A DNA stretch of 64,000 nucleotides from Dehalococcoidia bacterium (GTDB lineage Bacteria > Chloroflexota > Dehalococcoidia > UBA2979), in the NCBI GenBank assembly GCA_009692765.1, contig SHYQ01000002.1:12476-76475 (forward strand), written 5' to 3'. This document shows positions 6,339 to 48,524 of this stretch, one piece after another. The notes beneath the pieces were generated by a model that was not told where the DNA came from, did no database searches, and saw nothing but the letters and a program-made list of their open reading frames with translations. The translations under genes were made by a program, and so were the position numbers. How positions within the stretch are numbered: position 1 is the stretch's first letter; every line of letters begins with the position of its first letter.

Positions 6339-7335
6339 CGCGTGTCGAGGTGCTGCGCGGGAGGGGGAACCCTCACCCCCGGCCCCTCTCCCGCTTCGCG
6401 GGAGGGGGGAGTCAGAAATCAGAAGGTGATGCGAGGGGGCTGCGCCCCTCGCGCTCCCGGCGGAACGGCGCGCGGTAGGCGCCCCTACGGCGAGGTGGGA
6501 GCGGCCGGCGTCGAGGTGCTGGAGGGTGAACCCTCACCCCTGGCCCCTCTCCCGCGAAGCGGGAGAGGGGAGTCAGAAATCAGAAGGTGATGCGAGGGGC
6601 TGCGCCCCTCGCGCTCCCGGCGGAACGGCGCGCGGTAGGCGCGCCTGCGGCGAGGTGGGAGCGGCCGGCGTCGAGGTACTGCGCGGGAGGGGGAACCCTC
6701 ACCGCCGGCCCCTCTCCCGCTTCGCAGCAGAGGGGAGTCAGAAATCAGAAGGTGATGCGAGGGGGCTGCGCCCCTCGCGCTCCCAGCGGAACGGCGCGCG
6801 GTAGGCGCCCCTACGGCGAGGTGGGAGCGGCCGGCGTCGAGGTGCGGATGGGGGAAACCTCACCCCCGGCCCCTCTCCCACTTCGCAGGAGAGGGGAGTC
6901 AGAAATCCGCAGGTGATGCGAGGGGGCTGCGCCCCTCGCGCTCCCGGCGGAACGGCGCGCTACTTGCGCGCCGGGCGCGGAGCCTGACGCGCGTCGAGGT
7001 GCTGCGCGGGAGGGGGAACCCTCACCCCCGGCCCCTCTCCCGCTTCGCAGGAGTGGGGAGTTAGAAATCAGAAGGTGATGCGAGGGAGCTGCGCCCCTCG
7101 CGCTCCCGGCGGAACGGCGCGGGTAGGCGCGCCTACGGCGCGGGGGAGCGGCCGGCGCGCGGCGCCATCGAGCCGCATGGCGTGGTGCGCCCTCACCCTG
7201 CCCTCGCCCACTGCGTGGGCGAGGGTTCTGATCGGATCTGGCCCCCTCTCCTGCGGAGCGGGAGAGGGCGGGGGGTGAGGGCGCACCACGCCACGCCCCC
7301 GTATGAGCAGCGGCAGCGACGAACAGGCCGAAGGC
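6305..7335. repeat. tandem array of five ~160-bp composite hairpin-repeat units plus a nested-palindrome module
   Basis: Units start with GTCGAGGTRCTG at 6344, 6510, 6670, 6836 and 6993 (periods 166, 160, 166, 157). Each unit is module A plus TCAGAAATCAGAAGGTG plus module B. Module E lies at 7179-7292. Confidence 0.9.
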
Positions 7336-11680: not shown

Positions 11681-12526
11681 CTAGAGCGCGCGGTAGGCGT
11701 CGTGCAGCGTGTCGCCATCGAACATGCCGGCGCCCTCGCCGCGCGCGTAGCGGTAGAGGGCGGCCTTGAAGATGCCCTCGAGGGCCATCACGATCGCGGC
11801 GGCGAGCGACATCGTAAGCACGCCCACGACGATGCCGAGCGCGGGCGAGGCCGCGTACAACGCCGCCGCAGGCAGGAACGCCACGCCCAGCGCGGCGAGG
11901 TAGACCAGCCCGAAGCCGAAGCCGGCGACCGCCTGGTTGCCCCACGTCTTGCTGAACAGCGCGCTCGACTGCCGGATCGCCGCGATCGGGCCGAGGCCCT
12001 CGACGACGAGCACCGGTACGACGAAGTAGGTCACGTACGCCCACACGCCACCGACGAGGCTCACCGCGAGGCGGCCCATGAAGTTGTCGTTCGCGCGGTC
12101 GCGCAGCGCGCTCAGGATCATCCCCACCGTCGCGGCGATCACCGCCCAGCCGAGGATCGCCGGGAGGTGTGGGAGGACGGCGCGCAGTCCGCTGCCGACC
12201 GTCGGGTCGCCGCCGCGCAGGCGCTCGAGCGCCGCCGAGATCAACGCGGCGTTGAAGGTGATCGCGATGGTATACGCGAGCACGAGGAAGACGAACGTCA
12301 CGATGCCATCGACGCCCGTCACCGCCGCGCCCGCGCCGCCCGAGGCCGCCGCCGCGCCGAGGCGCGCCACCGTGCCGGTGCCCATGCCGATGACGAAGAA
12401 CACCCCGATCAGCCCGAGCAGCGCGACGCCCGAGAGGACCGGGAACAGCAGCAACTCGCGGTCGTGCATCAGCACGCGCCAGGAGGTTTTGACGAGCGAG
12501 AACGTGTGGCCAATGGTGTTGAACAT
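11681..12526 (-). CDS. DUF6159-like integral membrane protein
   Basis: MFNTIGHTFSLVKTSWRVLMHDRELLLFPVLSG... followed by about 6 TM helices. ATG 12526 is preferred over the track start 12589. Confidence 0.65.
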   Translation of the reverse strand: MFNTIGHTFSLVKTSWRVLMHDRELLLFPVLSGVALLGLIGVFFVIGMGTGTVARLGAAAASGGAGAAVTGVDGIVTFVFLVLAYTIAITFNAALISAALERLRGGDPTVGSGLRAVLPHLPAILGWAVIAATVGMILSALRDRANDNFMGRLAVSLVGGVWAYVTYFVVPVLVVEGLGPIAAIRQSSALFSKTWGNQAVAGFGFGLVYLAALGVAFLPAAALYAASPALGIVVGVLTMSLAAAIVMALEGIFKAALYRYARGEGAGMFDGDTLHDAYRAL

Positions 12527-28146: not shown

Positions 28147-28764
28147 ATGCCCGTCATGACCCTGTTCGCGCCCGACATCTTCTGCGACCACTGCATCTCG
28201 ACCATCAAGAAAGCGACCGAAGCCATCGAGGGTGCGCGCTTCGTCCAGGGCGACCCGGCGACGCGGCTGTTCACCGTCGACCTGCCGAACGGCGCCGCCC
28301 TCGACGCGCTCGGCGCGGCGCTTGCCGAGGAGGGCTACCCGCTTTCCGACGCACCCTCGACGCCCGCGGGCGCGTCCGAGGCGCACCCCGGCATGACGAT
28401 GCTCGGCACGCTGATGAGCGCGCCGGGGGCAGCGCCCGCGATGATGCACGGCGGCCACGCCGTGGCGAGCGGCCCGTTCCACCCGCAATACCTCAAGATC
28501 GAGCGCACCGAGGCCGGGGCGGACATCACCTACTCCTGCCCGTGCGGCAGCACGACGGAGGTGTTCCACCTCGATCGCGGGCAGGCGGATCACGCGCCGC
28601 ACTCCTGCTGCGGGCACCACACGCTCGTCGGTGCGGACGCGGCGGCGCGGCTGCGCGCCCGCCTCGGCGACGGGTACGACATCGACGTGCAGACGATCAC
28701 GATGCCGTGGGGCCAGCCGCTCGAGGCGGCGCAGGCGGTCCCCCGGGCAATCTCGAGGGGCTAG
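28147..28764 (+). CDS. three-part putative copper-binding protein (HMA-like CDHC domain, Met/His-rich linker, Cys/His-rich C-terminal domain)
   Basis: MPVMTLFAPDIFCDHCISTIKKATEAIEG (ferredoxin-like HMA pattern with CxxC), HPGMTMLGTLMSAPGAAPAMMHGGH, and YSCPCGSTTEVFHLDRGQADHAPHSCCGHH. SD GAAGGAG precedes the start. Confidence 0.65.
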   Translation: MPVMTLFAPDIFCDHCISTIKKATEAIEGARFVQGDPATRLFTVDLPNGAALDALGAALAEEGYPLSDAPSTPAGASEAHPGMTMLGTLMSAPGAAPAMMHGGHAVASGPFHPQYLKIERTEAGADITYSCPCGSTTEVFHLDRGQADHAPHSCCGHHTLVGADAAARLRARLGDGYDIDVQTITMPWGQPLEAAQAVPRAISRG

Positions 28765-28774
28765 GGAGGCGACG

Positions 28775-29041
28775 ATGGACGAGCACACCCAGGCCGACGT
28801 GCTCAAGCGCCTCGCGTACATCGAGGGGCACCTCGCCGGCGTGCGCCGCATGATCGAGGCCGACACCTATTGCGTCGACGTGCTGAAGCAAACGTACGCC
28901 GTGCGCCGCGCGATCGAGAAGATGGAGGCGGAGATGCTCGACGGGCACCTGCACCACTGCGTCCTCGACGCGATCCGCGAGGGCAAGGCGGAGCAGTCGT
29001 TCACGGAGCTGATCGACCTCTATCGCGTCGCCAACAAGTAG
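28775..29041 (+). CDS. csoR: CsoR/RcnR family metal-sensing transcriptional repressor
   Basis: LKRLAYIEGHLAGVRRMIEADTYCVDVLKQTYAVRRAIEKMEAEMLDGHLHHCV, a DUF156 pattern with C...H...C ligands. Confidence 0.9.
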   Translation: MDEHTQADVLKRLAYIEGHLAGVRRMIEADTYCVDVLKQTYAVRRAIEKMEAEMLDGHLHHCVLDAIREGKAEQSFTELIDLYRVANK

Positions 29042-29120
29042 CGTCACGTAGCCGCCATCAGGTGTTGTGCGCGCCGTACGACGGCGTCATCGCGCTAGAG
29101 AACTCGGTAGGGCCGCCCGC

Positions 29121-31520
<2,400 letters not shown>

Positions 31521-41854: not shown

Positions 41855-41869
41855 CGGGCACGTCGGGGT

Positions 41870-42292
41870 GCGTCCGGGGACGGTCGCAGACTGCGAGGAG
41901 CTGGAGGACTGCGTCGGCGGCCCATCCCCCTGCCCCCTTCCCTGCGCGGGAAGGGGGACGTTCTTGTGGGGCTCCGCCCCCACGGGCCCCGTTTCTCAGG
42001 ACAGCAACCCGCTCTTCGAGTGGAGACGATGCGCCATCCGCAGCGCGCCCGCCCCCCGCCGCTTCACGAGCGTGGGTTCCGAATGCACGACATCCCTCTG
42101 ACTCCGGCGTGCGCCTAACGCGCACGCCTTCGCCGGGAGCGCGAGGGGCGCAGCCCCCTCGCATCACATTCTGACTTCTGACTCCCCTCTCCTGAGAAGC
42201 GGGAGAGGGGCCGGGGGTGAGGGTTCCGCTCCCCTCCCGGGGCACGGAGGGGGCAAGGGGTGGGCCGTCCCTCAGTCCTCGACGCCCTGCGC
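41870..42292. repeat. hairpin-repeat block (C forward, D-like, B reverse, A reverse, C reverse)
   Basis: GGCGGCCCATCCCCCTGCCCCCTTCCCTGCGCGGGAAGGGGGAC, CCGGCGTGCGCCTAACGCGCACGCC, module A reverse at 42182. Ends AGTCCTCGAC. Confidence 0.9.
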
Positions 42293-42298
42293 ATCCCG

Positions 42299-42961
42299 CT
42301 ACCGCCCCGCGCCCTCGCGCGCCTCGATGTACGCGCCGAGGAAGTCGCGCGCCCACGTCGCGAAGTCACCGGCCGCGTCGCCGAGGGCGATGATGTGGTC
42401 GTCCTCCAGCGGCAGCCGCGCCTCGACGGGCGCGCCGTCGGCGTCGAGGTTCGACAGCAGCAGGCTCGCCGCGCCGCCGCCGTCGCCCCCCGCTGGGCCG
42501 GGGAGCGTGGTCACGGTGGGCGGGCCGGCCTCGAAGGCGCGCATCGGCGTGGCGAAGGAGGCGAGGCCGGGGAACTCCGCCAGCTCCTCCGCGCTCTGCA
42601 GCGCGCTGCCGTCGAGGTGCATCGCTTCGAGCAGCGCGGCGGGGCGCTCCTCGGCGAGGGCGACGTCGGCCGCGAAGCGCGTCCACGCCGCCGCGCCCGG
42701 CAGCGGCCGCGCGAGGGAGCGCGCCACCGGGTGCGTGCGATCGACGAGCGCGAGCCAGACGTGGTTGAGGCGGCGCGCCGCCTCGATCGCCTCCTGCACG
42801 AGGAGCGCGGTGAGCGCGGGGCGGTACGCGGCGTCGGCGAGGAAGATGCCGGTGAGCACGTTGTCCGCGACGATCTGCGGCTTGCGCAGCGCCGTCGAGG
42901 CGTACGCGCGCAGGAACGCGGACTCGCTCATGCCGCCGGGGAACGTCGAGTCGGTGGTCAT
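42299..42961 (-). CDS. hypothetical protein, last gene of the radical SAM cluster
   Basis: 220-aa ORF with non-shadow composition. It lies 67 nt downstream of the cytochrome c gene on the same strand. No family recognised. Confidence 0.5.
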   Translation of the reverse strand: MTTDSTFPGGMSESAFLRAYASTALRKPQIVADNVLTGIFLADAAYRPALTALLVQEAIEAARRLNHVWLALVDRTHPVARSLARPLPGAAAWTRFAADVALAEERPAALLEAMHLDGSALQSAEELAEFPGLASFATPMRAFEAGPPTVTTLPGPAGGDGGGAASLLLSNLDADGAPVEARLPLEDDHIIALGDAAGDFATWARDFLGAYIEAREGAGR

Positions 42962-43028
42962 GCGCGCAGCCTCATCCGGAGTGCAGCCGGGAGCGCAGCC
43001 CTCGACGTACCGGCGCGTCGGGCGATCG

Positions 43029-43544
43029 CTACCTGAGGCTCTTGATGTACGCGATGACCTGGTCGATCTCCTCGGCCTTCATCGTCTTCGCGAAGTCCTG
43101 CGGCATGATGCTGGGCGCGAACCCCTGGTGCACCTTCGCGTTGGGGTTCTCGATCGATTCCTTGAGGTAGGCGTCGTCGGCGGTCAGCTTCTGGCCGTTC
43201 GTCAGCGCGACCTCGTGCCCCGCGAGGCCCTTCCACGTCGGCCCGACGCCGTTCGCGCCGGTCGCGCTGTGGCACGCCGTGCAACCGTACTTGCCGGCCA
43301 CGGCCTGGCCCAGGCGCACCGGGTCGCTGCCGGCCGCCGCCTTGCCGGGCGCAGCCGCGGGCGCGCCCGGCGCGCTCGCGCCGCCCGCGGGGATATGCGC
43401 GGCCATCCCGGAGCGCTCCGCGAGCGCCATCTGCGCCTCGTGGCGGCGCATCGTCGGGGCGTCGGCGCCCATGCAGCCGGCGGCGAGCGAGGTGAGCGCG
43501 ATCAGCGCGAGCATCGTGATGGCTCGGTGGGGGAACTTACGCAT
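43029..43544 (-). CDS. class I c-type cytochrome lipoprotein
   Basis: Lipobox LAAGC. Haem-binding CTACH. The downstream PSIMP region provides a Met axial-ligand candidate. Confidence 0.9.
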   Translation of the reverse strand: MRKFPHRAITMLALIALTSLAAGCMGADAPTMRRHEAQMALAERSGMAAHIPAGGASAPGAPAAAPGKAAAGSDPVRLGQAVAGKYGCTACHSATGANGVGPTWKGLAGHEVALTNGQKLTADDAYLKESIENPNAKVHQGFAPSIMPQDFAKTMKAEEIDQVIAYIKSLR

Positions 43545-43623
43545 CGGCGGGTCCTCTCGTGCAGGCGGCGGGGCCGAGTCGCGCCATCTGCATAGCCTAG
43601 CGAAAGCCTAGCGGAGCCGCCCG

Positions 43624-45201
43624 CTAGCGTCCGCCTTCGGCCCCCGCGGGAGCCAGCGGAGCGGTGCGCGTGGCTGGCGCGAGGTGGAACGGCGCGAGCT
43701 GCTCCGCGGTCGGCTCGGCGCAGCAGAACCACGCCTCCGTCAGCCCGGGCACGAAGTCGCCCGCCGCCGCGCCCGCGCCGTCGGGCGCGGCGGGCGCGCC
43801 CGCGTCGTCGAGGCGCCCCGCCGCACGGTATGCGGCCGCGCGCACCCGCGCGAAGACCTCGGCCGCATCCTCGATGGGCGCACCGGCGTCGTCGAGCGCC
43901 GCCGCCTCGGCGATCGCCGCCAGTTCCGCCTGGAGCGCGTCCACGCGCGAGTCGGCGGCGCGCCACGTGTACGTCAGCCGCTCCTCGTCGAGGGGGCCCA
44001 ATCCACCCTCGGACGCCAGCCGCGCCACCAGCGGCGAGCCGGGGGGGAGCAGCAGCCGCAGCCCGTACTGCACCGCCTGCACGCTGCGCGTGAGGCCCTG
44101 CGCCGCGACGAAGTCGAGCATCGCCAGCACGTCGTCGAGGCTCGTCCACGGCGTGAAGGCCACCCACGTCGGCCGCACCGGCAGCCCCGCCGCCGCAGCG
44201 TGCGCGAGCGCGGCCGCGAGGTCGCCGGCGCTGTGCCCCTTCTCGAGGATCGCGAGGATCGCGTCGTTGCACGACTCGAACGCTGAGGTGACGAAGATGC
44301 AGCCGGTGGCGCGTAGACGCGGCAGCAGGCCGGCGTGCTCGATCAGGTGCTCGACCTTGATCGTGGCGTCGTAGGTGAGATCCGGCCAGCGCCGGTGTAG
44401 CTCCTCCACGATCGCCAGCGAGTGCGGCGCGGCGTTGAGGAAGTCCGGGTCGCCGAAGGTGATGTGACGCGCGCCGGCCTCGACCTGCTGCGCCATGTCG
44501 GCGAGCACGACCTCGCGCTGCACCAGGCGCAGCGCGCCGCCGTACACCGGCGTGATCGGGCAGTGCGTGCAGGTGTGCGCGCACCCGCGCGTCGCCTCCA
44601 CGTACCCCGCGAGGTGCTCGCCGTCCGCGCGACGCACGCGCGCGTACCGCTCGAGGCCGGGCAGCCCTCGACGGTCCGGGATGGCGTAGCGCTGGCGCGT
44701 GAGCAGCGGCGTCGCGCCCGCGCCGGCGATCGGCGCGCCGGCCGGCGCGCGGCCCGCGATGCGATCGGCCAACGCGCGCAGGCCCTCCTCGTACTCCCCG
44801 CCGATCACGAGGTGCGCGCGGTCGGGCCCGACCAGCTGCGCGTACAGCGGCGACGCGTACAGCCCGTAGCACGCGACGGTCACGTGCGGCGCGGCGTCGC
44901 GCGCCGCGCGCGCGAACGCGAGGCCGATGCGCGCCGCCGTGTGCATGGGGATCGAGATCGCGACGAGGTCGACGTCGCGCAGCACCGTCGGTAGCGGCAC
45001 GTCCACGGCGAGGTCGAGCGTGCGCACCTCGTGCCCGGCGGCGCGCAGCACCGCCGCGGGGGCGGCGAGGCCGAGCGGCTGGTGGCCGAGCTCGTACGTC
45101 GAGACGAGCAGCACGCGCGCGCCGCCCGTGCCCGTCGCGGCGATCGAGGCGCGGCCGGGCAGCGTGCCGAAGGCGAGCGCGGCGGCGGGCGTGGAGGTCA
45201 T
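43624..45201 (-). CDS. B12-binding-domain radical SAM protein with C-terminal CCAEP motif
   Basis: N-terminal Rossmann-like VLLVSTYELGHQPLGLA...VDLVAISIP. Radical SAM cluster motif GCAHTCTHC (CX3CX2C). C-terminal EAWFCCAEPTAEQL. I recall a curated family named CUAEP/CCAEP-tail radical SAM (seleno)protein. Confidence 0.8.
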   Translation of the reverse strand: MTSTPAAALAFGTLPGRASIAATGTGGARVLLVSTYELGHQPLGLAAPAAVLRAAGHEVRTLDLAVDVPLPTVLRDVDLVAISIPMHTAARIGLAFARAARDAAPHVTVACYGLYASPLYAQLVGPDRAHLVIGGEYEEGLRALADRIAGRAPAGAPIAGAGATPLLTRQRYAIPDRRGLPGLERYARVRRADGEHLAGYVEATRGCAHTCTHCPITPVYGGALRLVQREVVLADMAQQVEAGARHITFGDPDFLNAAPHSLAIVEELHRRWPDLTYDATIKVEHLIEHAGLLPRLRATGCIFVTSAFESCNDAILAILEKGHSAGDLAAALAHAAAAGLPVRPTWVAFTPWTSLDDVLAMLDFVAAQGLTRSVQAVQYGLRLLLPPGSPLVARLASEGGLGPLDEERLTYTWRAADSRVDALQAELAAIAEAAALDDAGAPIEDAAEVFARVRAAAYRAAGRLDDAGAPAAPDGAGAAAGDFVPGLTEAWFCCAEPTAEQLAPFHLAPATRTAPLAPAGAEGGR

Positions 45202-45260
45202 GCGTCTCCCTGCTGGCGGGCGCGTCCGCGCGGCCTCCACGGTACGGCGTGCACGCCGCT

Positions 45261-46505
45261 CTAGCGGCGCGCCTCGTGCGGCGCATCGTGGGCGGCGCGC
45301 GCGGCGGCGTTCGTCTCCGCCACCGTCTCGCGGGCGGCGCGCCAGAGCGCCCGCACCTGCCCGCGGTGCACGACGAGGATGCCGATCGCGAGTACGAAGT
45401 AGATCACGGCTGCCGCCAGACGCACCTCGCTGTTCGGCACGACAAAGGTGACGGCGAACATGCCGAACAGCAGCATCGCCTCGCGCGTGCTCAGGCTCAG
45501 GCTCATCACCACGACCACCGCGAAGATCGACTGCGCCGCGGTGAGGAGCATCTCCTCCGTCTGGCGTTCGTCCAGCGGCAGGCCGTGCCAGCCGCCGCTG
45601 GCGATCGCGTAGGCCACCGCCAGCCCGCCGACGAGCAGCGTCCACTGGTTCACCTTCGACGAGAGCAGCACACCCATCCCCACCGCCGCCCGGCCTCGCC
45701 ACGCGAGCAGACCCGCCACGAGGAACTCCGGCGCCTCCGAGGCGAATGGCGCGAGCCACTGCACGAGCACGAACTCGTCGATCCCCAGGCTGGTTCCCGA
45801 GTGCACCAGCCCCTCCGCGAACGGCTCTGCCGACAGCAGGATCGCGACCGCGGAGTACACGAACAGCGTGCCGACGACAGCCCGCCGCTGGACGCGCGGC
45901 AGCGTGCCGATCAGTTGCGCGGGGCCGACGAGGTCGGGCTCCTCCGACGGCGCGCGCGCGATGATCCACATGTAGGCGACGAAGCCGAGCGCGAGGATCG
46001 CCGCGTCGTAGAGATCGATCGAGCGCTTGAACGGGATGATCAGCGCGTAGATCGACACGAGCGCGAGCGTGAGCACCTCGACGGAGCGCGACTTCTCGAG
46101 GATCAACTCGCGCACGCGCGTGCGCCACCACACGACGAGCACGACCATCGGCCACGCCGCGCCGATCAGCAGGCGGTTGCCGCCGGTCATGTTGGCGACC
46201 GCGTAGGGCGCGAACGACGGATCCGTCCCGGCCTTCCACGCGAACGACATGCTCACCGCGTACTCCGGCAGCACAGCGATCAGTGCGATCAGCGCGACCG
46301 CGAGGCCCTGCGTGATGTCGACCTCGGCGGCCTCCGCTGCCCACGAAAGGAGGAATGCGGCCGCGACGATGGAGAGGCCGTAGAGTGACGTGTCGGGGAC
46401 GGTGCCGAGGTGCGTCCCGCTCAGCTTGAGGATGACGCCCGGGGTGGCGCCCACCACCGCCGCGACGAGCGCTACGCCGTTCGAGTTCATCGCCTGCCGT
46501 TCCAC
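45261..46505 (-). CDS. CaCA (sodium/calcium exchanger) family cation antiporter membrane protein
   Basis: 10-11 TM helices with duplicated alpha-repeat-like regions (LSWAAEAAEVDITQG... and LAPFASEAPEFLVAG...). Start GTG 46505 or ATG 46490. Confidence 0.75.
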   Translation of the reverse strand: MERQAMNSNGVALVAAVVGATPGVILKLSGTHLGTVPDTSLYGLSIVAAAFLLSWAAEAAEVDITQGLAVALIALIAVLPEYAVSMSFAWKAGTDPSFAPYAVANMTGGNRLLIGAAWPMVVLVVWWRTRVRELILEKSRSVEVLTLALVSIYALIIPFKRSIDLYDAAILALGFVAYMWIIARAPSEEPDLVGPAQLIGTLPRVQRRAVVGTLFVYSAVAILLSAEPFAEGLVHSGTSLGIDEFVLVQWLAPFASEAPEFLVAGLLAWRGRAAVGMGVLLSSKVNQWTLLVGGLAVAYAIASGGWHGLPLDERQTEEMLLTAAQSIFAVVVVMSLSLSTREAMLLFGMFAVTFVVPNSEVRLAAAVIYFVLAIGILVVHRGQVRALWRAARETVAETNAAARAAHDAPHEARR

Positions 46506-46662
46506 CGGGCGCGGCCGTTGCTGCGCAGCGTTTCCCCGCAGGGTACCCTCCCGGCAGGGTAGAGGGCGGATACGCTCGTGTCCGACCCGGCCGCCCGCGC
46601 GATGGAGCCCTCGACTGCCATTCCAGCTCGACTCGCTGCTCGACGCACTCCGGCACCTCGAC

Positions 46663-47232
46663 GTGTGGATTCAGGCCATCGGCTACGCGGGCCTGTTCGT
46701 CGTCGTCTTCGTGGAGACGGGGCTGTTCTTCGGGTTCTTCCTGCCCGGCGATACGCTGCTGCTCACCGTCGGGATCCTCGCGCAGCGCGGCCACTTCGAC
46801 CTCGAGGTCGTGGTGCCGCTGCTGATCATCGCGGCGATCACCGGCGACGCCACCGGGTATGCGATCGGCCGGCGGGCGGGCCCGCTGCTCTTCGCCCGCG
46901 ACGACGCGCGCTTCTTCCGGCGCCGCCACCTCGAACGCGCGCGCGAGTTCTTCGACCGTCACGGTGGCAAGGCGATCGTGCTGGCGCGCTTCCTGGCGAT
47001 CGTGCGCACCTTCGCGCCGCCGGCGGCGGGCGCCGCCGGCATGTCGTACGGGTGGTTCACCGTGTGGAACATCAGCGGCGGCGTGCTCTGGGTGGTGTCG
47101 ATGGTCGGCACGGGCTACCTGCTGGGGAACACCATCCCGAACCTCGACCTGGTGCTGATCGCGGTGGTGCTGGTCGTCTCGGTCGCACCGGTCGCGTGGC
47201 ATTGGTGGCGCGAGCGCGCGCGTCGCGCGTAG
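46663..47232 (+). CDS. DedA family membrane protein, start unresolved
   Basis: GYAGLFVVVFVETGLFFGFFLPGDTLLLTVG...ITGDATGYAIGRRAG...GGKAIVLARFLAIVRTFAP. The conserved-looking N-terminus LDSLLDALRHLD lies upstream of the first in-frame canonical start outside the antiporter gene (GTG 46663). Confidence 0.75.
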   Translation: MWIQAIGYAGLFVVVFVETGLFFGFFLPGDTLLLTVGILAQRGHFDLEVVVPLLIIAAITGDATGYAIGRRAGPLLFARDDARFFRRRHLERAREFFDRHGGKAIVLARFLAIVRTFAPPAAGAAGMSYGWFTVWNISGGVLWVVSMVGTGYLLGNTIPNLDLVLIAVVLVVSVAPVAWHWWRERARRA

Positions 47233-47398
47233 CCGCGCGCAGCGACTCCCACCCGCGGCCCGGACACCCCCCCGGCCCTCCCCCGCCGAGGGGAGCGGGG
47301 AAGCAGCGAGGGCACGCGCGCGTGAGGTGGCCGCGCGGGCGGGGCTCGGCGTACGCTCCTCGTCGCAGCGTGTGCCGGGCCGCGGTGGAGGAAGCATC

Positions 47399-48109
47399 GT
47401 GACGAATCGACGTCCGCCGGCCGGCGAGGCCGAAGCGCCGCCCCCCGCGACGGCCCCCTCCGCGACGGCCGAGCGGTACCTCGAGGCGATCTTCTACATC
47501 GAGGGGGAGGGCGAGGCGGTGCACGCCTCGCGGCTCGCGGAGTGGCTCGGCGTGTCGCAGCCCACCGTGGGCGCGATGCTGCGGCGTATGGCGGCGGACG
47601 GCCTCGTGCGCACCTCGGCGGCGAAGGTGGTGACGCTGGCGCCGCGCGGCGTGGCGCTGGCCTCGAGGATCGTGCGGCGGCATCGCATCGCGGAGCGCTG
47701 GCTGACGGACGTGGTCGGCCTCGACTGGGCGGCGGCGGACGACGAGGCGAGCCGTCTGTCGCACGCGCTCTCGGACGCCGTCGCCGACCGCCTGTTCGAG
47801 TTGATCGGCCGCCCGACCGCGTGCCCGCACGGCAACCCCATCCCCGGCGTCGACGCGCCGCGCGGCGCGGAGCGCCCGCTCTCCTCGCTAGCCGCGGGCG
47901 AGCGCTCGAAGGTGCGCCGCATCTCCGAGGTCGCCGAGCACGAGGCGCCGGAGTTGCTGCGCTTCCTGGGCGGGCAGGGCTTCCGCATCGGCGTCGACGT
48001 GGAGGCCTCCGCGATCTCGCGCGGCGCCGGCACCTTCACCGCGCGCGTCGAGGGCAAGGACGTGCCGATGTCCCTCGACGTCGCGGGGCGCGTCTGGGTC
48101 GACGCGTGA
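47399..48109 (+). CDS. DtxR/IdeR/MntR family metal-dependent transcriptional regulator with FeoA/SH3-like C-terminal domain
   Basis: ERYLEAIFYIEGEG..., SRLAEWLGVSQPTVGAMLRRMAADGLV, RRHRIAERWL, ACPHGNPIP. SD GGAGGAAG precedes GTG 47399. Confidence 0.9.
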   Translation: MTNRRPPAGEAEAPPPATAPSATAERYLEAIFYIEGEGEAVHASRLAEWLGVSQPTVGAMLRRMAADGLVRTSAAKVVTLAPRGVALASRIVRRHRIAERWLTDVVGLDWAAADDEASRLSHALSDAVADRLFELIGRPTACPHGNPIPGVDAPRGAERPLSSLAAGERSKVRRISEVAEHEAPELLRFLGGQGFRIGVDVEASAISRGAGTFTARVEGKDVPMSLDVAGRVWVDA

Positions 48110-48114
48110 GCGTG

Positions 48115-48480
48115 GTGTGCACGGGAGGGCGGACCCTCACCCCCGGCCCCTCTCCCGCGGAGCGGGAGAGGGGAGAGAAGGAGCAGATGATGCGAGGGTG
48201 CTGCGCCCCTCGCGCTCCCGGCGGAGGCGTGCGCGGCAGGCGCACGCCGGAGTGGGGGAACGGTGTGGGCGGGGGTTCAGAACAGGAGAACGTGATCTTC
48301 TCCCATCCCCCCAGCCCCCTTCCCTCGCGGGAAGGGAGAGTTCGCCTCGCGGGATCGGAGCACGCCGACTGCGCGCGTTCCGCGAGGCGCGGGGGCGGAG
48401 CCCCCACATCTCCGTTCTTCTCAGAACCCCCTTCCCGCGCAGGGAAGGGGGCAGGGGGATGGGCCGGCCCGCGCATTGCG
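48115..48480. repeat. hairpin-repeat block (A forward, B-like, D-like, C variants)
   Basis: GGACCCTCACCCCCGGCCCCTCTCCCGCGGAGCGGGAGAGGGGAG, ATGCGAGGGTGCTGCGCCCCTCGCGCTCCCGGCGGAGGCGTGCGCGGCAGGCGCACGCCGGAG, GAACCCCCTTCCCGCGCAGGGAAGGGGGCAGGGGGATGGGCCGGCCC. Confidence 0.9.
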
Positions 48481-48524
48481 ACGAGGCGCGCCCCGCGCAC
48501 TGCGACGACGTCGGCGTCACCTCG

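Follow-up and report, generated by a model that had tools for sequence, protein, structure and literature searches.

The six adjacent genes at positions 42299-48109 of a 64,000-nt stretch of Dehalococcoidia DNA (positions 12,476 to 76,475 of contig SHYQ01000002.1, assembly GCA_009692765.1; hereafter the window) encode a conserved protein of 220 amino acids (aa), a cytochrome c, a radical S-adenosylmethionine (SAM) enzyme of the CUAEP/CCAEP-tail family NF040546, a CaCA-family cation antiporter, a DedA membrane protein and a DtxR-family regulator. This six-gene cluster is likely not to be a dedicated functional module. The genes are real but would be functionally unrelated to one another, and their adjacency would go back to a gene order passed on in a single clade, with the DedA and DtxR genes inserted locally, in an ordinary stretch of Dehalococcoidia chromosome.

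The neighbourhood of the radical SAM gene was compared across 84 loci, made up of 80 from a genome-contig search, the loci obtained by contig look-up and the window itself. All open reading frames (ORFs) lying up to 6 kb from the enzyme were clustered by all-against-all BLASTP, and the result was cross-checked by TBLASTN of named queries. Homologues of DedA and of DtxR were each present near the enzyme in one locus, in both cases the window, and the cytochrome c in two. The antiporter was found in seven loci, all within the single Dehalococcoidia clade closest to the window (radical SAM enzymes 63-100% identical). The 220-aa protein occurred in six of this clade's loci, 0.7-7 kb away. A first-pass annotation of the window had proposed a functional unit of the enzyme with cytochrome c, CaCA, DedA and DtxR, which is not conserved. 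The neighbourhoods of the homologues proved to be unrelated to that of the window, an outcome named beforehand in that annotation as speaking against the unit.

Only four families occur in more than nine of the 84 loci, namely ATP-grasp proteins (47 loci), NfuA-like proteins with a NifU domain (31), YggX (22) and DUF169 (15). The latter three are nearly mutually exclusive and each is mostly located less than 100 bp from the enzyme. Both flanks extend to 2.5 kb or more in 47 loci, and 39 of these encode at least one of the four within 2.5 kb. For the window clade, with identities of 63% or more and Cys forms throughout, the number is 0 of 5, compared to 39 of 42 for the other well-flanked loci, and no homologues of ATP-grasp, NifU, YggX or DUF169 were detected in the 64-kb window. 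The linked ATP-grasp proteins carry the domains PF13535, PF18603 (the L-amino-acid-ligase C-terminal domain) and PF18130 and give sub-threshold matches to the dipeptide-antibiotic ligases BacD and DdaF. The linked NifU protein resembles NfuA, with an A-type carrier N-terminal domain in some copies, and the linked YggX, an Fe(2+)-trafficking protein, exceeds the cutoff of the oxidative-damage-protection equivalog (126 bits, cutoff 74). Examples of such partner genes, among the loci L005 to L086, are found in L006 (7378-10665) and L054 (10001-13976). The association of ATP-grasp and NfuA, YggX or DUF169 with NF040546 is not mentioned in the literature searched, and a literature search on DUF169 returned nothing useful.

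Gene order in close relatives was examined on Pfam-annotated contigs at 72-86% identity. A backbone order of about 20 kb is common to these contigs. Its first part consists of DUF179, alcohol dehydrogenase, hydrolase, UbiE-type methyltransferase, CaCA, radical SAM, cytochrome c and a protein of about 215 aa, followed by SpoU (on the opposite strand), a protein of about 400 aa, aldo-keto reductase, Zn-ribbon, FKBP, RNase T and CBS. The DedA-DtxR pair is inserted between the methyltransferase and CaCA genes in the window and in the relative with 86% identity only, and is already absent at 72-75% identity.

This distribution bears on the idea that all six repeat-bounded genes form one metal or metalloid redox module, in which DtxR senses, DedA and CaCA transport, and the radical SAM enzyme and the cytochrome c transform. 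The genes are adjacent, each has a conceivable metal link, the CU/CC dyad is tied to heavy-metal chemistry in other proteins and the identical six-gene order recurs in the 86% relative. The module is nevertheless highly improbable, given the counts for DedA, DtxR and cytochrome c and the absence of the pair from slightly more distant relatives, together with genome-wide repeats, a DtxR-like protein without three of the four primary metal ligands and a spacer of 166 bp, which holds a hairpin, between the DedA and DtxR genes. Furthermore, the cytochrome c is predicted to be an extracytoplasmic lipoprotein because its signal peptide ends in an LAAGC lipobox, whereas no signal peptide was found in the radical SAM enzyme, nor in the 220-aa protein.

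Some observations weigh against the genes being unrelated, and they concern mainly the four genes on the minus strand. The order CaCA, radical SAM, cytochrome c and ~215-aa protein is retained in four relatives (72-86% identity). In the window these genes are closely spaced (gaps of exactly 59, 79 and 67 bp), each is preceded by its own Shine-Dalgarno sequence, and a promoter and terminator scan between them revealed neither a sigma-70-like promoter nor a minus-strand terminator, so that the four may be co-transcribed in this organism. When the intergenic sequences were folded, the sole structure obtained was a weak hairpin (z -2.1) at the stop codon of CaCA. In addition, the absence of the ATP-grasp/Nfu partners holds for the 64-kb window only. 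This possible co-transcription is what chiefly still favours a small operon specific to the lineage.

Taken further, these four genes could be a co-transcribed, lineage-specific operon with a shared function that has replaced the ATP-grasp/Nfu partnership, since the window clade alone has lost the family-wide partners from its neighbourhood. This is quite unlikely in view of the relatives. In some of them an opposite-strand Usp gene, or Usp together with a whole Opp operon, splits CaCA from the enzyme, and neither L007 (75% identity) nor the members with 63-67% identity have the cytochrome c. The 220-aa protein keeps with SpoU and lies up to 7 kb from the enzyme; its gene adjoins the SpoU methylase gene in all six annotated relatives and is directly convergent with it in five, while in L087 a NUDIX gene separates the two. 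The conserved order from CaCA to the 220-aa gene carries no specific signal because the surrounding ~20 kb are equally syntenic, and a cytoplasmic enzyme is again set against an extracytoplasmic cytochrome. An inherited gene order therefore remains the preferred explanation for the four genes as well.

The first-pass annotation had also described the unit as bracketed by repeat blocks. Both blocks are real, and each is in part an inverted copy of the other, with matching stretches of 66 nt (94% identity), 40 nt (100%) and 43 nt (88%). They do not mark a boundary, however. A BLASTN search of both blocks against the window placed the family at about 17 intergenic sites, approximately one per 4 kb, spanning positions 5212-61652. 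Apart from the two blocks, sites are located near 5.2, 6.3-7.3, 13.6-13.9, 18.7-19.2, 20.3-20.8, 25.1, 27.0-27.3, 32.5, 34.2-34.8, 35.3, 39.4-39.7, 50.2, 51.4, 56.6-56.9 and 61.4-61.6 kb, and a tandem array at 6346-7151 contains five copies head-to-tail. The units have a length of about 130-170 nt and give rise to long spurious ORFs; examples of their hairpin cores are CCCCTCTCC...GGAGAGGGG and CCCCCTTCCC...GGGAAGGGGG. The family looks genome-wide and REP/MITE-like (repetitive extragenic palindromes or miniature inverted-repeat transposable elements). With about 17 dispersed sites, the bracketing is no more than expected by chance and says nothing about the gene group. Searches with Pfam and NCBIfam detected no transposase or integrase domain in 42299-48109. 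A composite transposon or repeat-bounded mobile unit was rejected, as the repeats are dispersed and mobility genes are absent.

The G + C content of the window is about 74%, and the ORF lists are therefore full of spurious frames. The six genes were settled from Pfam and NCBIfam matches, the public gene calls on an identical contig and inspection of the start codons (Table 1). All six genes, the quoted motifs, the intergenic gaps and the two repeat blocks of the first-pass annotation could be recovered.

Table 1. Features of the six-gene region and its flanks, in window coordinates.
Feature	Position	Strand	Basis
Left repeat block (dispersed intergenic family, GC-rich and palindromic)	41860-42298		BLASTN, block comparison
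Conserved hypothetical protein, 220 aa	42299-42961	-	No Pfam/NCBIfam match
Monohaem class I cytochrome c lipoprotein (predicted), 171 aa	43029-43544	-	PF00034, CTACH, LAAGC lipobox
CCAEP-tail radical SAM enzyme, 525 aa	43624-45201	-	NF040546, PF02310, PF04055
C-terminal CCAEP motif (C493-C494-A-E-P)	43711-43725	-	Tail conserved in complete loci
CX3CX2C motif (C207, C211, C214), ligates the radical SAM [4Fe-4S] cluster	44560-44583	-	Invariant in three alignments
CaCA-family cation antiporter, 409 aa	45261-46490	-	PF01699
DedA/VTT-domain membrane protein, 189 aa, GTG start	46663-47232	+	PF09335
DtxR-family regulator, 236 aa, FeoA/SH3-like C-terminal domain	47399-48109	+	PF01325, PF02742, PF04023
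Right repeat block (family of the left block, in part in inverted orientation to it)	48110-48490		BLASTN, block comparison

Among the neighbours of the enzyme, the cytochrome c, whose gene lies near that of the enzyme in close relatives only, matches PF00034 with 35.3 bits (cutoff 21.3, E 2.9e-8), and its CTACH haem motif conforms to CxxCH. The antiporter matches PF01699 in two stretches (E 7e-21); its ATG start at 46490 agrees with the public 409-aa call, and an alternative GTG is located at 46505. For the 220-aa protein 114 homologue clusters were obtained, whose named sources are metagenome-assembled genomes (MAGs) of Dehalococcoidia and other Chloroflexota, except for one Phycisphaerales label and one marine metagenome fragment. 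The AlphaFold 2 model of this protein is of high quality (predicted local distance difference test, pLDDT, 95.3; predicted TM-score, pTM, 0.92), and a Foldseek search of the model against the PDB gave no fold match (best E 0.8).

The DedA protein scores 168.8 bits with NF008102 (cutoff 236) and 40-44 bits with the UptA models; by these scores it is a family-level match and not an UptA orthologue. The DtxR-like protein was called a DtxR/MntR-type metalloregulator in the first-pass annotation. Its three Pfam domains support the family, but 3 of the 4 primary metal ligands are absent: at the positions of M10, C102, E105 and H106 of DtxR it has R, S, S and H. Of the other positions compared, H98 is replaced by D, and H79 and E83 are retained. 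The score with the DtxR equivalog NF053665 is 133 bits (cutoff 290), and the protein is also well below the cutoff of the MntR equivalog. With these substitutions, the regulator may lack canonical sensing of iron or manganese.

The divergent region between CaCA and DedA (46500-46662) contains a GGGTACCC palindrome and a direct repeat of CAGGGTA 16 bp apart, which could be an operator. A DtxR-type operator was sought there by eye, and neither the palindrome nor the CAGGGTA repeat resembles a DtxR box.

Scans of the window for tRNAs and Rfam families gave no hits, including none for tRNA-Sec, a selenocysteine insertion sequence (SECIS) or a riboswitch. No sel or ars genes were found in the annotated parts of the window, the annotation being partial. 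Where annotated, the remainder of the window comprises housekeeping genes and a CsoR/copper-ATPase pair. The latter (28445-31520, plus strand) consists of a CsoR-family metal-sensitive repressor followed by an HMA-domain P-type ATPase, is likely a copper efflux pair and represents the sole clear metal-homeostasis module in the annotated parts, 11 kb from the six-gene region.

The radical SAM enzyme belongs to the family to which the first-pass annotation had assigned it. It scores 564.9 bits with NF040546 (E 1.2e-169), above the curated cutoff of 500, and the match covers positions 1-467 of the 468 in the model. The gene has an ATG start preceded by an AGGGAG ribosome-binding site. The radical SAM domain PF04055 (E 8e-10) and the B12-binding domain PF02310 (E 5e-10, residues 31-144, an N-terminal Rossmann-like domain) are both matched, and the GCAHTCTHC motif is present. 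In an alignment of 79 loci from many phyla, in which CX3CX2C is invariant, conservation reaches at least 97% at 81 positions, all of which are retained in the window enzyme. The conserved cysteines of this alignment are limited to C207, C211, C214, C493, C494 and C301 (92%), and an auxiliary-cluster motif is thus absent. An identical protein is found in the database, from a Dehalococcoidia MAG, and relatives are encoded in at least 589 species-level genomes of Chloroflexota, Acidobacteriota, Actinomycetota, Nitrospirota, Gemmatimonadota, Proteobacteria and other phyla. A sequence search of the PDB with the enzyme as query returned no match. With the other members of NF040546 it shares CX3CX2C, the B12-binding-like N-terminal domain and the LTE.WFC[C/U]AEP tail, and it is set apart by having the Cys and not the Sec form, by a longer C-terminal extension after the motif and by its place in a Dehalococcoidia subclade without the usual partner genes nearby. 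On the strength of its sequence, the gene is a real and intact Cys-form member of an orphan family. The family is described as uncharacterised in a preprint (Haft, 2022, 10.1101/2022.07.06.499078), in agreement with the function being noted as unknown in the first-pass annotation, and literature searches on CUAEP, CCAEP and NF040546 returned this preprint alone.

The tail of the window enzyme reads WFCCAEPTAEQL (residues 491-502) and includes C493-C494. At the DNA level, W[FY]C[C/U][AS]EP occurs without exception in the 83 complete loci, of which 53 have selenocysteine (Sec) forms with an in-frame TGA and 30 Cys forms. In the Sec-form loci the frame runs on for 10-30 codons beyond the TGA. Of the best 120 database homologues, 73 end at ...WFC, from which it follows that gene callers stopped at the UGA codon. 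The second tail position of the window enzyme is a Cys codon (TGC/TGT) and not TGA, and the Cys form lies within the family definition. The first-pass annotation had stated that the first tail Cys can be Sec; a Sec does occur in the tail, but its position is that of the second Cys, and it is found in most relatives. The CU motif is rare and has been associated with heavy-metal chemistry (Haft preprint, 10.1101/2022.07.06.499078).

An annotated CUAEP/CCAEP-tail gene also occurs in a cultured organism, on the megaplasmid of Thermomicrobium roseum DSM 5159 (NC_011961.1, 796591-798027). Its annotation ends at ...WFC, which suggests a Sec form cut at the UGA. The gene is flanked by genes for a pyridoxal phosphate (PLP)-dependent aminotransferase and an MFS transporter, and the organism could serve as an experimental host.

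For the reaction of the enzyme the following scheme can be proposed. The [4Fe-4S] cluster on C207, C211 and C214 would cleave SAM reductively, possibly at the C-gamma-S bond, which would yield a 3-amino-3-carboxypropyl (ACP) radical. A soft acceptor atom would be held, or a redox-active site supplied, by the conserved and mobile Cys-Cys pair at the C-terminus, which is Cys-Sec in most relatives, perhaps with a contribution from C301. The N-terminal 'B12-binding' domain would probably be a Rossmann domain free of cobalamin. The partners of the enzyme in most lineages may be an adjacent ATP-grasp protein of the L-amino-acid-ligase type and a dedicated Fe-S/Fe helper (NfuA-like, YggX or DUF169); an amino-acid-like product would be expected because of the ligase partnership. 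The model for this scheme is ArsL, which forms a C-As bond in arsinothricin biosynthesis, cleaves SAM to 5'-methylthioadenosine (MTA) and the ACP radical, and binds As(III) with three tail cysteines. By analogy, an ArsL-like mechanism appears the likeliest for the window enzyme, though it is put forward only tentatively.

Two differences from ArsL speak against this mechanism. The window tail has two cysteines and lacks the third of CCxxC, AEP replacing the LKC of the RCCLKC tail, and the ars gene context (arsM, arsQ, ACR3, ArsR, ArsN) is absent both from the annotated parts of the window and from the other 83 loci; no ars-type families were among the neighbour clusters of the 84 loci. A generalisation to the whole family can be offered with little confidence. 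NF040546 might be a second and much more widespread ArsL-like group, in which a chalcogen or metal(loid) atom, soft in character, would be offered to the ACP radical by the tail, an unknown hetero-atom amino acid would be made and coupled by the ATP-grasp protein, upkeep of the Fe-S cluster would fall to NfuA, YggX or DUF169, and the window subclade would have been rewired and lost the partners.

The proposed six-gene cluster gives no functional handle on this orphan (seleno)enzyme family. Better leads at the family level are the kinship with ArsL, including the aligned vicinal-Cys tail, the ATP-grasp ligase together with the Fe-S/Fe helper, and a probable independence of cobalamin. The window locus lacks the partners and is a poor place for studying NF040546, and the leads matter family-wide.

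As an alternative, the enzyme could be an ordinary radical SAM methyltransferase of the cobalamin-dependent class B, with 5'-deoxyadenosyl radical chemistry and with the tail cysteines as H-atom donor or redox pair. A Cys-Sec C-terminus recalls the redox-active tail of thioredoxin reductase, which counts for such a role. The class B enzymes TsrM, OxsB, TokK, CysS and MgmA share the two-domain fold and the Pfam B12-binding match with the window enzyme. The class B methyltransferase models, however, reach only 25-56 bits compared to cutoffs of 360-650, no methyltransferase-specific features were identified in the comparison, and the nearest enzymes by sequence (ArsL) and by fold (AprD4) are reported to be without cobalamin. 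This alternative is therefore doubtful. AprD4 and ArsL homologues are reported to bind no cobalamin despite their Rossmann-like domain (2026 review, PMC12931638), so that the 'B12' label is probably nominal. The first-pass annotation had used this label; the Pfam match behind it stands, but it is the sole source of the label, and the closest relatives are reported to be cobalamin-free.

The AlphaFold 2 model of the window enzyme has a pLDDT of 91 (75-88 in the tail), and its best fold match in the PDB is AprD4 (6fd2; Foldseek E 1.8e-16, TM-score 0.63-0.72), followed by OxsB, TsrM, MgmA, CysS, MiaB and TokK. AprD4, a radical SAM 1,2-diol dehydratase, likewise combines an N-terminal Rossmann-like domain with a radical SAM barrel. 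The sequence identity amounts to 18%, and the corresponding model NF033070 scores 20 bits compared to a cutoff of 500. The Cys-Cys tail is missing from AprD4, whose substrate is an aminoglycoside.

By sequence comparison, ArsL is by far the closest characterised family. Its model NF040542 is the second-best NCBIfam match of the window enzyme, with 261.9 bits (E 1e-77) below a cutoff of 450, and the third-best model follows at E 3e-15. On the Bacillus cereus plasmid pAH820_272 (L089, 244200-255414), a gene for a protein with the RCCLKC tail is accompanied by genes for a MIP channel, GNAT, ArsR, ACR3 and ArsC. An ATP-grasp gene is located next to ArsR there, whose product shows 24% identity (E 5e-18) to the CUAEP-linked ATP-grasp protein and parallels the CUAEP partnership. 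NF040546 differs from ArsL in its far wider phyletic distribution and in a linker of about 40-60 aa ahead of the tail. The domain architecture is common to both, and the RCCLKC-tail protein of the B. cereus plasmid, a member of the ArsL family, shares 33% full-length identity with the window enzyme, its tail CC aligning with C493-C494.

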